NCBI GenBank assembly: GCA_019721075.1
Contig: JAHEAD010000006.1
Location: 1-64,000, forward strand
Reading direction: 5' to 3'
DNA from: Candidatus Sysuiplasma jiujiangense
Lineage (GTDB): Archaea; Thermoplasmatota; Thermoplasmata; Sysuiplasmatales; Sysuiplasmataceae
DNA length: 64,000 nt
Made by a program: the position numbers and the translations under genes
Shown here: positions 57,867 to 64,000 of the stretch, one piece after another
How positions within the stretch are numbered: position 1 is the stretch's first letter
How the letters are laid out: every line of letters begins with the position of its first letter
The notes under the pieces: generated by a model
What the model was told of the DNA's origin: nothing
Database searches by the model: none
The model's input: only the letters and a program-made list of their open reading frames with translations

Positions 57867-59225
57867 ATGTCTGTAAGACGGGTAATAATAATTGGCGGGG
57901 ATGCAGCCGGAATGAGCGCTGCATCCAGGGTAAGGAAACGGCTGCCGGATGCGGAGGTTGTTGTTTATGAGGCCGGAGGGTATGTCTCATATTCCGCGTG
58001 CGGCATGCCATTCCATGTGGCAGGCGTTGTCAGTGAATTCGCCAGCCTGCTGCACTATCCGGTGGAAAAATTTGAAAAGGAGCGGAGGATCCAAATCAGG
58101 CTGCACAGCAGGGTCACGGAAATAGACACGGAAAAGAAGGTGATCAGGTTTCTCAGCAACGGTGTCCCGGAGCAGGACCATTTTGACAGACTTATTATTG
58201 CTACGGGCGCCAGCCCGAAGGTACCGCCTGATCTTGCGGGACTGAATGCTGTAAGGACTCTCCGCACGTTAAACGACCTTGATGCATTCGAAGAACTCGC
58301 AAACCGTGCTTCGCACATCACGATTGTCGGCGCAGGCTATATCGGCCTTGAACTCTCCGAATCCTTCAGGATGCTTGGTAAAGATGTAAGGATTCTTCAG
58401 AGGTCTGACAGAATACTGAGGGGATACGATGCCGAACTGTCAAAGCAGATCGTCGACGAGGTTGTCGGCAACGGGATTCGCATCGATTTCAAAACCGAAA
58501 TTGAAAAGGTCGAGGAACGCGGAACTGCCGTCCGTATCCGGACGAAGGACGGGAGCGAATTTGACACAGACATGATTGTTGCTGCGACCGGTGTTACGCC
58601 CAACAGTGCGCTGGCTTCCTCGGCGGGCATTGCGCTCGGCGCTTCCGGCGCAATCAGGGTCAATGAATATATGGAAACCAGTGCTCCGGGAATTTTTGCC
58701 GCAGGGGACGTTGCAACAACTTTCAATATGATTACAGGTGAAAGCATTTACATGCCTCTGGCTACGGGCTCCAACAAGTCGGGCAGGGTTGCCGGGGAGA
58801 ATGCGGCGGGGGGAAGGGTAAGGTGGTCAGGTGTTGCAGGTACTGAAGTGGTAAAGGTCTTTTCGCTTGAAGTGGGGCGCACAGGAATTGATGAGAATGA
58901 GGCGGTGTCGCACGGATTCGAACCTGTTTCATCGACGATAACATCCACAACACGATCTGCATATTATCCGGGCGCAGGCCCGCTGACAATACGGCTGATG
59001 GCGGACAGGAAGTCGCACAGATTTCTGGGTGGCAACATCATCGGGAAGGAGGGGGTAGCAAAGAGGCTGGACGTCCTTGCAACCGCAATAGCAGCAGGCA
59101 TGACGGTGGATCAGCTGGTGACTGTGGATTATTCGTATTCACCTCCCTTTGCGCCCGCCTGGGAACCCATCGGAGTGGCAGCCGATGTTCTGTCGGGCAA
59201 GCTGCACGATCAAGCGGCTGGCTGA
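57867..59225 (+). CDS. CoA-disulfide reductase / NADH oxidase family flavoprotein
   Basis: GGDAAG, SYSACG single redox Cys, GAGYIG, AAGD, YSPPF. Confidence 0.9.
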   Translation: MSVRRVIIIGGDAAGMSAASRVRKRLPDAEVVVYEAGGYVSYSACGMPFHVAGVVSEFASLLHYPVEKFEKERRIQIRLHSRVTEIDTEKKVIRFLSNGVPEQDHFDRLIIATGASPKVPPDLAGLNAVRTLRTLNDLDAFEELANRASHITIVGAGYIGLELSESFRMLGKDVRILQRSDRILRGYDAELSKQIVDEVVGNGIRIDFKTEIEKVEERGTAVRIRTKDGSEFDTDMIVAATGVTPNSALASSAGIALGASGAIRVNEYMETSAPGIFAAGDVATTFNMITGESIYMPLATGSNKSGRVAGENAAGGRVRWSGVAGTEVVKVFSLEVGRTGIDENEAVSHGFEPVSSTITSTTRSAYYPGAGPLTIRLMADRKSHRFLGGNIIGKEGVAKRLDVLATAIAAGMTVDQLVTVDYSYSPPFAPAWEPIGVAADVLSGKLHDQAAG

Positions 59226-59991: not shown

Positions 59992-60975
59992 TCATCCTCT
60001 TTCTGCAGAATAGATGTGGCGTCTCATATCCCTGTGATCAGGCGTTTTTCTGACGAAGCCATTGCCAATCAGATAGGCAATGGCCTTCTGGACTGTTCTT
60101 CGCTGAAGACCCGTTATAGACATCATTCTGGTCTGATCCATTGAGCCGTGTGTTTGCAGAACGTGATAGATGAAGAGTGCAGCCGGACTGGCGCCCTGCA
60201 CAGGATTTTCCACGAGGGCGCCAAGCGTGTCTCCCCTAAGACCCAGTCTCTGTGTGGCAAGAGCCCCAATGCTTTCCGCTGAGACATTGCCGAGATTTAC
60301 CTTCGGACCAAGCTTCAGGATGAGTTCAGTCTGCTGTCTTTCCTGTGGGGCTTCAAACATAAGTTTGTCTTCAGGACATGAATCTCTGATCCTCTCCACC
60401 CAGTCCCATTTTATCTCACCGCTGTCATCATAGATTTCCACGCTCCTTCCGGTTTCTCTTCCCTCTATGATGACGAGATCACCGCCCAAATCCATCATTT
60501 GTGAAATGCGGTCAATAGTCTCCTCCAGGCTGAGCTGACTTTTCGGATTTTTTCTTCCAACTTCGGTATGCAGCCTCAACCCCGATGATCTGACAAATTC
60601 CGCGATCTCCCTCTTTATGTGGCGCGGTATCTCCACAACCCCTTCGCTGAGCTCAATCGTGTCAAAGCCAACGCGTGCGATGCCGTCAAGGGCCTTCATG
60701 TATTTGCCCTTCGACACCGCTATTTCGAGCATCGTGCCGCCGCTGGAAACAGTTACTCCCGCCTTTTTGAAAGACTCTATTCTGGAGCGGAGCGTTTCTT
60801 CATCAAGGATATAAGAGAGTCCCCATCCGATTTTCACACAATCGACAAAGCCGTGAAGCATGCGGACAGAGTCTACAGTTCCCTGAAGATATCTGTCAAG
60901 CACCATTGTTTTTCCTGCTGACCTAGCACCATCCAAGCATGGGATTTCGGTGATTTCAGCCAAAAAATACGACAA
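59992..60975 (-). CDS. comA: Phosphosulfolactate synthase (ComA) fused to a C-terminal winged HTH
   Basis: TMVLD, VKIGWG, GGT, IELSEG, EVGRK, EGRE, FEAP, VNLGNV, GLRGDT, followed by a MarR-like tail of about 65 aa. Confidence 0.88.
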   Translation of the reverse strand: MSYFLAEITEIPCLDGARSAGKTMVLDRYLQGTVDSVRMLHGFVDCVKIGWGLSYILDEETLRSRIESFKKAGVTVSSGGTMLEIAVSKGKYMKALDGIARVGFDTIELSEGVVEIPRHIKREIAEFVRSSGLRLHTEVGRKNPKSQLSLEETIDRISQMMDLGGDLVIIEGRETGRSVEIYDDSGEIKWDWVERIRDSCPEDKLMFEAPQERQQTELILKLGPKVNLGNVSAESIGALATQRLGLRGDTLGALVENPVQGASPAALFIYHVLQTHGSMDQTRMMSITGLQRRTVQKAIAYLIGNGFVRKTPDHRDMRRHIYSAERG

Positions 60976-61113
60976 TAATTCACCAGTTTATGCTATAATA
61001 TATGAATTTAAGAACCTTTGTATTCGAATAAATGAACATAATTATTCATATTACAAGCTATTTTTACGCATTCTGTATCTGTTATATATGGCCGTTTTTG
61101 TTCCAAATTGGAC

Positions 61114-61827
61114 ATGGAAAAGACAAAATTCGCCGGAAAAGAAGAGAATATGGATGCGCTTGCTCTGCTTAAGTGGGCCGACAGGGAATACGGACCGGAT
61201 GCAGTGTTTGCATGCAGCTTTGGTGCAGAGGATATGGTGATATTTGACATGCTGGCTTGCCTTCAGTCTCGCATCCTGATTGTCACTCTGGATACTGGAA
61301 GACTTAATCAGGAAACCTACAACCTCATCGAAGAGGTGCGTAAACGTTACGGCATAGGTATACAGCACATATACCCTGATCAGGACGAGCTCGGAAGCAT
61401 GGTTTCCGAACATGGGCCAAACCTGTTCTTTGAATCAGTGGAGAAGAGGAGGATGTGCTGCCATGTTAGAAAAGTTGCACCTCTGAACAGACTGCTCTCC
61501 GGAAAGAAAGCATGGGTTACCGGAATCAGGAGGGATCAGCTGTTCACCAGATCAAATTCTGCGAAGGTGCAGGAAGATCATGAAAGGGGAGGCATTGCAA
61601 AAATCGCGCCGCTGGCAGACTGGACCTACGAAATGGTGTGGAAATACATCAGAGAAAAAGGCATTCCGTACAACAGGCTCTTTGACAGGGGTTACACGAG
61701 CATCGGCTGTGAACCCTGCACCCGTGCCGTAAAGGCTGGTGAAGATCCGAGGGCAGGAAGATGGTACTGGGAAGCAGGCATAAAGGAATGCGGACTGCAT
61801 CATGCTGCGATGACCGGAAAGGAGTAG
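61114..61827 (+). CDS. cysH: Adenosine 5'-phosphosulfate (APS/PAPS) reductase
   Basis: SFGAED, LDTG, CC..RK, TGIRRDQ, SIGCEPCT, ECGLH. The CC...CxxC pattern indicates the Fe-S, APS-using type. Confidence 0.93.
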   Translation: MEKTKFAGKEENMDALALLKWADREYGPDAVFACSFGAEDMVIFDMLACLQSRILIVTLDTGRLNQETYNLIEEVRKRYGIGIQHIYPDQDELGSMVSEHGPNLFFESVEKRRMCCHVRKVAPLNRLLSGKKAWVTGIRRDQLFTRSNSAKVQEDHERGGIAKIAPLADWTYEMVWKYIREKGIPYNRLFDRGYTSIGCEPCTRAVKAGEDPRAGRWYWEAGIKECGLHHAAMTGKE

Positions 61828-61900: not shown

Positions 61901-62528
61901 TCATGGCGATGAGATTGGGGCATAACACCACTGTCCTGGAGTCATTTTGAGCAGATTATGCCATGTTCCCTTGCACATCGCAGCCGTCCTGATCCTGTCC
62001 TCTCCTCGCGCTGTATCCTCCAACCTGTGGTTCTCTTGTCTGCGGAGAACTCGGATTCTCAGTTCTCCCTCCTGTGGTATTCGGAAAGGAACTCCATCGG
62101 CGCATCCATGAGCCTGCCGATGAGTTCCTTCCATGCCGGCGATCCCCTGATTGTTGTGTTGCTTCTGGGTATTACGAACACCTTTGTTCCTTCAGAGAAG
62201 TCGTCCAGTGTGTACTGTGTGCAGTAATACTGGTCGAGGCGGATGCTCCCGGCATCCGTCAGCGTGATCCCGAGCATCTTGTGTGTGTCGCGGTGTGCAT
62301 GTTTCTCCGATTTCACGCCCACACCGTATGCTACGTAGAGTTGTAGAGTTTTGTGCCCAGGTCGAGTATTGCGAATGCATATTCGAAGAGTCTGTGGTCG
62401 AGAGTTGTCTTTATGCAGTTGCAGTTCTTGCGCATAGTTCGGTAGTGTCGTGTGATTGGCAGTGAGTAGCCGGTGCCGTCGCCGGTCAGGTTGCCTCTGA
62501 CGTGCTTAAGTCTGATCTTTACGATCAT
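61901..62528 (-). pseudogene. Decayed transposase (ISNCY/ISA1214-like), 5'-truncated
   Basis: Fragments GDGTGYSL, GVKSEK, RLDQYY, YHRREN*ES.FSADKR and MCKG.WHNL occur in three frames with an internal stop at 62059-62061. Confidence 0.75.
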
Positions 62529-62533
62529 GGAGA

Positions 62534-62576
62534 CTGTGTGAAAATCAAATTCCGGAAGTAATTGGATTTTACACAG
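62534..62576. repeat. Imperfect inverted repeat resembling IS1182-type termini
   Basis: CTGTGTGAAAATCAAATT-CCGGAAGT-AATTGGATTTTACACAG. Confidence 0.6.
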
Positions 62577-62650
62577 GACAGCTACACATGTTTGTGAGGA
62601 ATTATGTTCTGTTGCCGTGCCTATATGGAAAGGGGTAACAGGGGTAACGT

Positions 62651-64000
62651 TCAGATTTCTGTCTGTCTGAAGGAGTGCAGGAGAGCGGTTGAGCCCTGCA
62701 GGGCAGCTATGAGCTTTGCCGTTCCGACTGTGTTCAGTGCTCTCCTCATGTCATAAGCAATCATGGTCAGGCCAAGTTCACCTTTGACCTTCCTCAGTCC
62801 CTTCAGCAGCAGATAACCCTGATTGAACGCCCTCTTCATCGTTCCAAAAGGATGCTCAGACAGCTCCTTTCTCTTCCAGAGCTTCTCTCTGCCTTCCGCA
62901 GTCATCATCCTTGAATCCATTTCCTCGACTATCTCCTGGTGCTCCCATCTGTAGATGCGCCTGCCTCTACTGCTTGTTGTGCAGGCAGTCATATGGTATA
63001 GGCAGGACTCGCAGGGTGCATGTCCGTATATGAGAAAACGCTTGTTCTTCCAATGGCCATCGCACATGTACGTGAGTTTTTCGCCTGCCGGACAGGTGTA
63101 TGTGTTTGTGCAGCGGTCATAGACGAATCTGTCCTCACGGAAGCCCGGCCCGGGTATGCCCCTCCTTGCAGCGATCCCTCCCGGAGCACCATGCCTGGGA
63201 ACCGACGGCCTGATGCCGTTGTCGACACATTCCTTCAGCTGCAACACGTCGAAATATCCCTTGTCGGCCACAACCTCCAGACCTGATGCATCCAGTGCTT
63301 CGCCGGCGCCTGTTGCAACAGAAGCGAGCATGCCGTAATCGGTCGGGTTGTTTGTTGCATCATATTCAGCTATGAGCTTATGCTTCGAATCGACAGCAGT
63401 CTGTACATTGTAACAGACATCCAGACCATGCCTGGTCCTCATCAGCCTGCTTTCAGTGTCTGTGAGCGATATCTCTGTCTTTCCTGTCTCCTCCATTTCC
63501 CTGAGCATCCTCTCATAGTCCGCCTTTCTCTGCTTCGCCTTCTCTATCTTCTCCTTCAGAGACTGTCTGTTCAGCGAGTCTTCATCTGTGCTTTCCTGGC
63601 TGTCACGCTCATCCATCTCCTTCATGTACCTGCTTATGGAGGCGTCCACACGCTCTATCCTGTCCTGCAGCTTCTCCCTGTTGACATTCCTCTCCTTCGA
63701 GTTGACTGCCCTGAACTTCGAGCCGTCTATGGAAATGAGCTCCTTGCCGAACAGGCCAATGTCATCACAGAGCTTGACGAACGCCCTGAATACCCTCTTT
63801 ATGCACTCCGCGTTGTCCTTCCTGAAGTCAGCTATCGTCTTGAAGTCGGGCCTGAGCTTCTTCATGAGCCACATGACCTCCACGTTCCTTGAGCATTCAG
63901 CCTCCAGCTTCCTGCTGGAGCGTCTCTGGTTGAGATAGCCGTAGATGTACAGCTTGAGCAAATCGGCGGGATTGTAAGGCGGCCTGCACGTCTCACCGGG
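62651..64000 (-). mobile_element. IS1182-family transposase (5' end beyond the window)
   Basis: RPPYNPADLLKLYIYGY, SSRKLE, PDFKTIADFR, IDGSK, TDTESR, YNVQ, ADKGY, CPAG, EHPFGTMK. The frame stays open to the window edge. Confidence 0.93.

Follow-up and report, generated by a model that had tools for sequence, protein, structure and literature searches.

We identified in the archaeon Candidatus Sysuiplasma jiujiangense a protein in which a ComA barrel, an enzyme fold known for the addition of sulfite to a metabolite, is joined to a C-terminal winged helix. Judging from its sequence and predicted structure, the fusion is quite likely a one-component transcription regulator of sulfur supply, working through a palindrome beside its gene and a barrel that would bind a sulfur metabolite. 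That it regulates genes at all, variants with another effector counted, is the safer statement, and we regard it as highly likely. The family to which it belongs probably represents undescribed archaeal gene switches for sulfur supply. To our knowledge, little has been learned about the regulation of sulfate activation and sulfonate uptake in archaea; the fusion offers a candidate regulator with a predicted site in acidophilic Thermoplasmata and Nitrososphaerota, and this binding site can be tested directly. The gene lies in a 64,000-nucleotide stretch of contig JAHEAD010000006.1 (the window), from a genome of 2.29 Mb that is 97% complete. The features of the locus, in window coordinates, are:

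59992..60975, minus strand: ComA-winged-helix fusion gene, 327 aa, TTG start
60004..60189, minus strand: MarR-like winged helix-turn-helix, residues 263-324 (profile and predicted structure)
60208..60216, minus strand: low-confidence linker, residues 254-256 (pLDDT <50 in the model)
60229..60924, minus strand: ComA (phosphosulfolactate synthase-fold) barrel, residues 18-249, predicted to bind a ligand and possibly catalytic
60976..61113, no strand: AT-rich divergent promoter region, 138 bp, 26.8% GC
60999-61007, 61022-61030 and 61044-61052, no strand: further predicted half-sites in steps of about 21 bp, weaker than the full site
61052..61072, no strand: predicted operator, a strong half of the palindrome paired with a weak one, 11.4 bits held-out
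61082..61089, plus strand: TATA-like element, read from the sequence, with the cysH ATG about 28 bases further on
61108..61827, plus strand: cysH, predicted target gene, a thioredoxin-dependent APS reductase whose ATG is at 61114

The initial annotation, made from the letters of the window, had described a ComA-like barrel carrying an extra helix-turn-helix tail of about 65 residues, head-to-head with cysH over an AT-rich spacer, and had interpreted it as a trigger enzyme or a sulfite sensor. The description holds: the tail was recovered by Pfam and in a predicted structure, and the spacer measures 138 bp with a GC content of 26.8%, compared with 49.6% genome-wide. The assignment of CysH as an APS reductase was likewise confirmed by a score above the TIGR02055 cut-off (251.6 vs 235.3). 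Contigs from 4/4 runs, which may be sources of the same DNA, cross the junction between ComA and the tail with 0 indels and 0 substitutions; these runs, together with full-length homologs, rule out an assembly or frameshift artefact. Elsewhere in the window, the flavoprotein encoded at 57867-59225, two genes away from the fusion, resembles CoA-disulfide reductase, scores below the family cut-off and is not a recurring neighbour in the clusters. An IS1182-family transposase and short remnant ORFs follow cysH at 62060-64000, where most relatives have sat, and loose ends cluster and read depth rises at 62497-62544.

Scanned alone, residues 259-327 matched the Pfam MarR (25.1 bits, cut-off 24.6) and HTH_36 (25.3 bits, cut-off 25) models, both matches falling below the cut-off when the whole protein is scanned. 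The predicted structure of the tail (pLDDT 95.4) consists of three helices and a two-strand wing and superimposes on MarR-family structures with TM scores of 0.85-0.90 and rmsd values of 1.1-1.4 Å; the winged-helix fold, on which the initial interpretation hinged, is present by domain search and in the model. The tail of about 65 residues covers approximately 45% of the MarR targets; it falls short of the roughly 140 residues of MarR proteins and lacks the dimerisation helices at their N- and C-termini. Arginine and threonine in the recognition helix and the D-x-R of the wing are invariant in 71/71 tails. No other winged helix resembling the tail was found in the same genome (next best E 0.086), nor any stand-alone relative. 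Many Thermoplasmata, whether they carry the fusion or not, have stand-alone winged-helix ORFs of about 80 aa akin to the tail (e.g., G278:C275:18360-18578 and G248:C3:11640-11855), which are a possible donor of the fusion tail.

The barrel, residues 18-249, matched Pfam ComA (PF02679) with 220.9 bits against a gathering score of 25.2, and its top Foldseek match was 1qwg (rmsd 1.6 Å, 36% identity); the fusion protein stays below the TIGR03849 equivalog cut-off (227.8 vs 280 bits). All 12 polar positions conserved in single-domain ComA are kept in this protein, in 75 of 77 close homologs (this protein included) and in 95 of 117 complete tail-less rows. Since these residues are kept, we put turnover of substrate by this copy at about even. 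The motifs DRY and EVGRK, in place of DKG and EVGKK, had been taken to indicate that catalysis may be altered, an argument that appears weak from the alignment. EVGRK is no sign of altered catalysis because K142, its second lysine, is invariant in 77/77 rows, with arginine (50/77) or lysine (27/77) at position 141, and a catalytic loss deduced from this motif is ruled out by the same lysine. More telling for a sensor are the relatives whose barrels have lost residues while helix and sites persist, and the failure of comB and comE to track the fusion. In 1qwg, the counterpart of K142 is residue 137 by our count, the second lysine of EVGKK, and we take K137 of the M. jannaschii enzyme to be the catalytic lysine of ComA. 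Other positions have changed throughout the family: G29, glycine in 86% of single-domain ComA, is hydrophobic in 77/77 rows, T53, threonine or serine in 90%, is leucine or isoleucine in 75/77, and W190, W192 and Q147 are newly invariant. Six of the 12 divergent fusions have lost two or more of the twelve polar residues. L205, L206 and L207 lost E138, R173, N230 and R247 and retain the winged helix, so the DNA-binding part is kept where the enzyme core is not. With intact and degenerate barrels both present, an enzyme-to-sensor transition can be studied within one family.

A protein search with the fusion returned 607 matches, the best 120 of which are 301-353 aa long with 91-100% query coverage. 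Full-length matches occur in 43 of 301 genomes of the class, a count that takes in the genome under study plus the unpublished G097 and G211, and all fall in three families (f1 5, f10 24, f18 14). The 401 genomes of the phylum of G301 gave four matches, three fusions and one single-domain ComA. A look-alike cluster comprises 2,532 members, 99% of them archaeal, with Nitrososphaerota commonest. A quick tree was built from 106 rows restricted to the barrel, 36 from fusions plus 70 out of 126 without a tail; in it the fusions form one clade (36/36 barrels, SH-aLRT 99) on a long stem. Three tail-less rows lie within it; one is a long branch, and two end near the expected start of the tail and may be fragments. 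As far as barrel sequences can tell, the tree shows the fusion to be one archaeal clade of single origin, not a one-off. Its most divergent members are P0128, P0132, P0135, P0145 and P0160. Other ComA fusions were also encountered, namely Sat-ComA, ComA-ComB, AMP-binding(-carrier)-ComA and ComA-ATP-grasp (P0183, P0147, P0212, P0216, P0221, P0236), and other Thermoplasmata have a single-domain ComA of a distant type, which stands beside an MmgE/PrpD gene or between transporter genes (L149:10263-12489, L150:4120-4962).

We surveyed the neighbourhoods of 67 fusion loci, dropped seven with <600 bases upstream and counted the remaining 60. The expected linkage of homologs to sulfur genes was found, with cysH divergent from the fusion at 51/60 loci and sat following cysH at 37 of the 45 loci with enough sequence. 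At three loci without cysH (L045, L046, L051) the fusion faces ssuABC-like genes; at L016 it faces a YeiH-family exporter with sqdB next, and at L027 sqdB lies downstream and cysH is absent. The other four of the nine loci lacking cysH had no sulfur gene within the sequence inspected. In f10, the fusion lies near sat in G187, near a PF01663 hydrolase together with cysC in G146, and near that hydrolase alone in G160, G090 and G265; no sulfur gene was seen in the other f10 fusion neighbourhoods examined. The PF01663 hydrolase that often adjoins f10 fusions is 465-475 aa long and once followed by cysC (L148, L151, L153, L155). Across f1 and f18, cysH is present in 18/19 fusion-positive and 0/23 fusion-negative genomes, and sat in f18 in 14/14 and 3/18, respectively; only 7/22 fusion carriers of f10 have cysH. 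We read these co-occurrence counts as patterns, not tests, because related genomes are not independent samples.

The spacers of the family share the palindrome ATRYGHAA-N3-TTDCRYAT. The motif search took 89 upstream regions, 65 after removal of near-copies, and was palindrome-constrained with a per-sequence background. Its log-likelihood of 220.9 compares with 37.0 and 41.8 for two shuffled sets, and with 23.8 and 37.8 when the same search was run on control sets. In four-fold held-out scoring, at least 10 bits were reached by 40/65 spacers vs 0/29 other divergent spacers and 4/122 other upstream regions of the same loci, and in the AT-rich subset by 29/42 spacers vs 0/11 and 2/34 controls. 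The 25 of 65 held-out spacers with <10 bits include 8/9 of the GC-rich f10 ones. Half-sites are phased by about 10.5 bases in 56 spacers, with peaks at 10, 21, 32 and 43 bases. A matrix built from 51 Thermoplasmata spacers gave at least 10 bits before 7/10 other fusion genes, where cysH is absent, vs 5/151 controls, and before 0/13 single-domain comA genes, several of them GC-rich; none of 12 Bacillota comA upstream regions contains the palindrome. The tail fold, the linkage to sulfur genes and this conserved palindrome in the spacer support, at the level of sequence, the earlier trigger-enzyme-or-sensor interpretation.

In the genome of Ca. S. jiujiangense, the predicted operator at 61052-61072 is among 15 matches of at least 12.5 bits in 2.29 Mb and ranks fourth of the five near gene ends. 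It sits 10-30 bases upstream of the cysH TATA-like element, whose distance of about 28 bases from the ATG fits archaeal promoter spacing, and the half-site at 60999-61007 overlaps a TATA-like stretch of the fusion gene, as read from the sequence. A wider regulon was sought in a genome-wide site scan and not found: no site precedes sat, aprM, sqdB, comB or the NIR/SIR gene of this genome (best 4.9 bits). From these scans the regulon looks small and local. The best match in this genome (18.5 bits; G000:C34:56730-56750, L116:6731-6751) precedes an ECF transporter operon, which ends in a phospholipase C/acid phosphatase-like gene and has a PF01663 gene on its other side. It stays a lead because the site scores 11.8 bits in the same-genus G071 (94% identical protein), is absent in the fusion-negative G080, and the ECF gene occurs in only 3/10 genomes of the family.

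Beyond this genome, the degenerate fusion L206 has 12 sites in 14 kb amid ssuABC-like genes, where shuffled sequence gave 1.6 on average (at most 5 in 100 shuffles), and at L207 an 18.2-bit site lies between the fusion and ssuA. Several motif sites fall within about 3.5 kb of short ORFs upstream of the transporter genes (L206:900-4500), and are possibly decayed targets. The second copies L205 and L208 showed no site enrichment. Before unlinked cysH, three f10 carriers scored 10.8, 7.2 and 4.0 bits vs at most 3.3 in four non-carriers; no site was found before the unlinked cysH-sat of G236 (3.2 bits) or before cysH in 3/3 Thermoproteota-phylum genomes. We rejected sqdB as a target: a site is missing before it in 20/20 fusion-positive genomes (1/20 in negatives has one), some of these upstream regions possibly lying inside operons. 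A strict pattern searched across the full sequence of five genomes failed to tell carriers and non-carriers apart: it matched twice in a genome lacking the fusion and not at all in one that has it.

The palindrome might be a by-product of back-to-back archaeal promoters, or belong to another regulator, with the fusion not controlling its neighbours. The TTYRCATA-like half-site does resemble a TATA box, the spacers are AT-rich, many Thermoplasmata have stand-alone winged-helix genes related to the tail, and in f10 the motif overlaps start codons and exceeds shuffles only slightly (43.2 vs 30.0-35.5). Yet no other divergent spacer reached 10 bits, the control searches gave nothing comparable, the motif travels with the fusion to loci with other neighbours and to another phylum, and the genome under study has no stand-alone relative of the tail; such an origin of the palindrome is very improbable.

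The source annotation of these fusion proteins, phosphosulfolactate synthase, can be misread as coenzyme M synthesis. ComABCDE is given as the PEP route to coenzyme M in the part of PMC9457059 available, and an excerpt of PMC5155288 says that other Thermoplasmatales have coenzyme M synthesis. The initial annotation noted correctly that comB and sat are not in the window; both are nevertheless present in the genome on other contigs, unlinked to the fusion. The genome search that it proposed returned these two genes, with no Ldh_2-type ComC (PF02615) match in this genome and comE in 0/70 genomes (best score in this genome 42.9 vs a cut-off of 221.5 bits). Coenzyme M synthesis by ComABCDE is thus not supported, given the missing PF02615 match, the lack of comE and the unlinked comB. 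The ComB-family phosphatase of this genome (G000:C15:14247-14963) stands among translation and salvage genes, is found in 41/42 f1/f18 genomes irrespective of the presence of ComA, and may have a substrate other than phosphosulfolactate.

If the locus were simply a biosynthetic cluster of the B. subtilis kind, with a winged helix that is confined to autoregulation or has no function of its own, this would account for active-site positions intact in 75/77 close homologs, as in an enzyme. Such a cluster has a precedent in the B. subtilis operons, going by the excerpt of PMC517825, and a natural Sat-ComA fusion exists (P0183). Moreover, comB is present in the genome under study, in 9/9 other f1 (10/10 in all) and in 31/32 f18 genomes irrespective of the fusion, and a NIR/SIR-family reductase is lacking in 17/19 fusion-positive f1/f18 genomes, so sulfite needs another sink. 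However, comB does not track the fusion, being present in 18/18 fusion-negative f18 genomes and absent from 22/22 fusion-positive f10 genomes (present in 0/23 f10 genomes overall), and it was found at none of the 67 fusion loci. Neither comE nor an Ldh_2-type ComC offers a continuation of the route, sqdB provides an alternative sink in 57/65 genomes, and degenerate barrels retain the helix and the sites, which also occur before transporter genes. We therefore consider a purely biosynthetic cluster unlikely.

Under the preferred reading as a regulator of sulfur supply, the module would end at sulfite in most carriers, because comB and comE do not track the fusion and NIR/SIR-family reductases are few (2/19 fusion-positive f1/f18 genomes, one being that of Ca. 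S. jiujiangense). UDP-sulfoquinovose synthase, which uses up sulfite according to the portion of PMC4388408 seen, would be the likely sink, and sulfosugar synthesis is plausible as the fate of sulfite in most carriers. Its gene sqdB is found in the said 57/65 f1/f10/f18 genomes and in 0/15 others, does not track the fusion, and in this genome scores below the cut-off (505.7 vs 575). One such synthase (L027:7534-9819) is interrupted by some 350 inserted residues, the ends of which look intein-like (C first, N last). Separate from cysH, G000:C1 holds sat, aprAB and a QmoC-like membrane gene (154987-159294), then an hdr-like cluster (161925-167355), a dissimilatory sulfur-oxidation-type set in which the hdr-like cluster was named by eye.

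Predicted structure and sequence place a DNA-binding domain and a barrel, which we infer to be the sensor, in one chain. The winged helix would bind ATRYGHAA-N3-TTDCRYAT in the divergent spacer, and the ComA barrel would take up a sulfur metabolite, most likely sulfite, by itself or together with PEP and Mg2+, or else the product phosphosulfolactate, thereby switching DNA binding. The genes controlled would be those that bring in or activate sulfur, presumably cysH and sat in this genome as in most Thermoplasmata, and sulfonate-type ABC transporters in several Nitrososphaerota-group genomes. Archaeal activators bind upstream of the TATA element. We infer activation of cysH when sulfite is short and repression of the fusion's own gene, because the main site lies upstream of the cysH TATA-like element and a half-site overlaps that of the fusion gene. 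If regulation does run through the palindrome, the effector need not be sulfite: the barrel could sense another ligand, for instance PEP, APS, sulfate or a sulfonate that has been imported, and the family-wide changes at G29 and T53, with the newly invariant W190, W192 and Q147, would reflect that switch. Partner genes encoding sulfonate importers, PF01663 hydrolases and CysC also speak for it. Against this, the polar core of single-domain ComA is intact here and the commonest target, cysH, makes sulfite, and we regard such an effector as improbable. Within the sulfur-supply reading, a working trigger enzyme that gauges sulfite by PEP turnover may be ancestral, with the Nitrososphaerota-group members as pure sensors, a scenario that is conceivable though doubtful. 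ComA is described as a trimer in the accessible part of 10.1101/2024.10.15.618377. If that scenario is true and the trimer is kept, three winged helices would read half-sites one helical turn apart, an unusual three-fold reader on a two-fold site.

Compared with ComA itself (PF02679, TIGR03849; PDB 1qwg, 1u83), the fusion has the same barrel with 12/12 polar positions, but it carries the extra C-terminal winged helix, forms its own clade, is changed at G29 and T53 and falls below the TIGR03849 cut-off; comC and comE were not found and comB is not linked. In B. subtilis, ComA is presumably paired with ComB, and we take yitA to be sat, yitB cysH-like and yisZ cysC, in operons that diverge. The excerpt of PMC517825 describes the ComA gene there as clustered with a second operon inferred for phosphosulfolactate synthesis (yitCD, yitBA-yisZ). 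That ComA is single-domain and expressed in sporulation, whereas the fusion locus has no comB and has a DNA-binding tail and a palindrome. The plant ComA homolog HSA32 has a role other than in coenzyme M synthesis, acting on HSP101 stability, and the part of the source consulted describes no DNA-binding domain for it (10.1101/2024.10.15.618377). No library model names the ComA-winged-helix architecture, and full-text literature searches, whose coverage excludes most subscription journals and supplements, where a mention is possible, returned no description of a ComA-HTH fusion. CysB/Cbl in bacteria, MsvR in methanogens and SurR in Thermococcales control sulfur assimilation, sulfonate uptake or the sulfur response. 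Their sensor domains (LysR, V4R, redox cysteines) are unrelated to the barrel, and the fusion gave no match to these families. BirA, NadR, PutA and the ROK repressors combine a metabolic fold with a helix-turn-helix and control genes of their own pathway, some lineages having lost catalytic residues; the fusion would likewise be an enzyme-derived regulator, no ComA-based member having turned up in our searches. With MarR and TrmB-like regulators (PF01047, PF12802, PF01978; PDB 1s3j, 1sfx, 4fht) it shares the three-helix bundle, the wing with its D-x-R, a palindromic site and a divergent gene. Unlike MarR, its tail is only the 65-residue DNA-binding core, and an enzyme barrel takes the place of the dimerisation and ligand helices.
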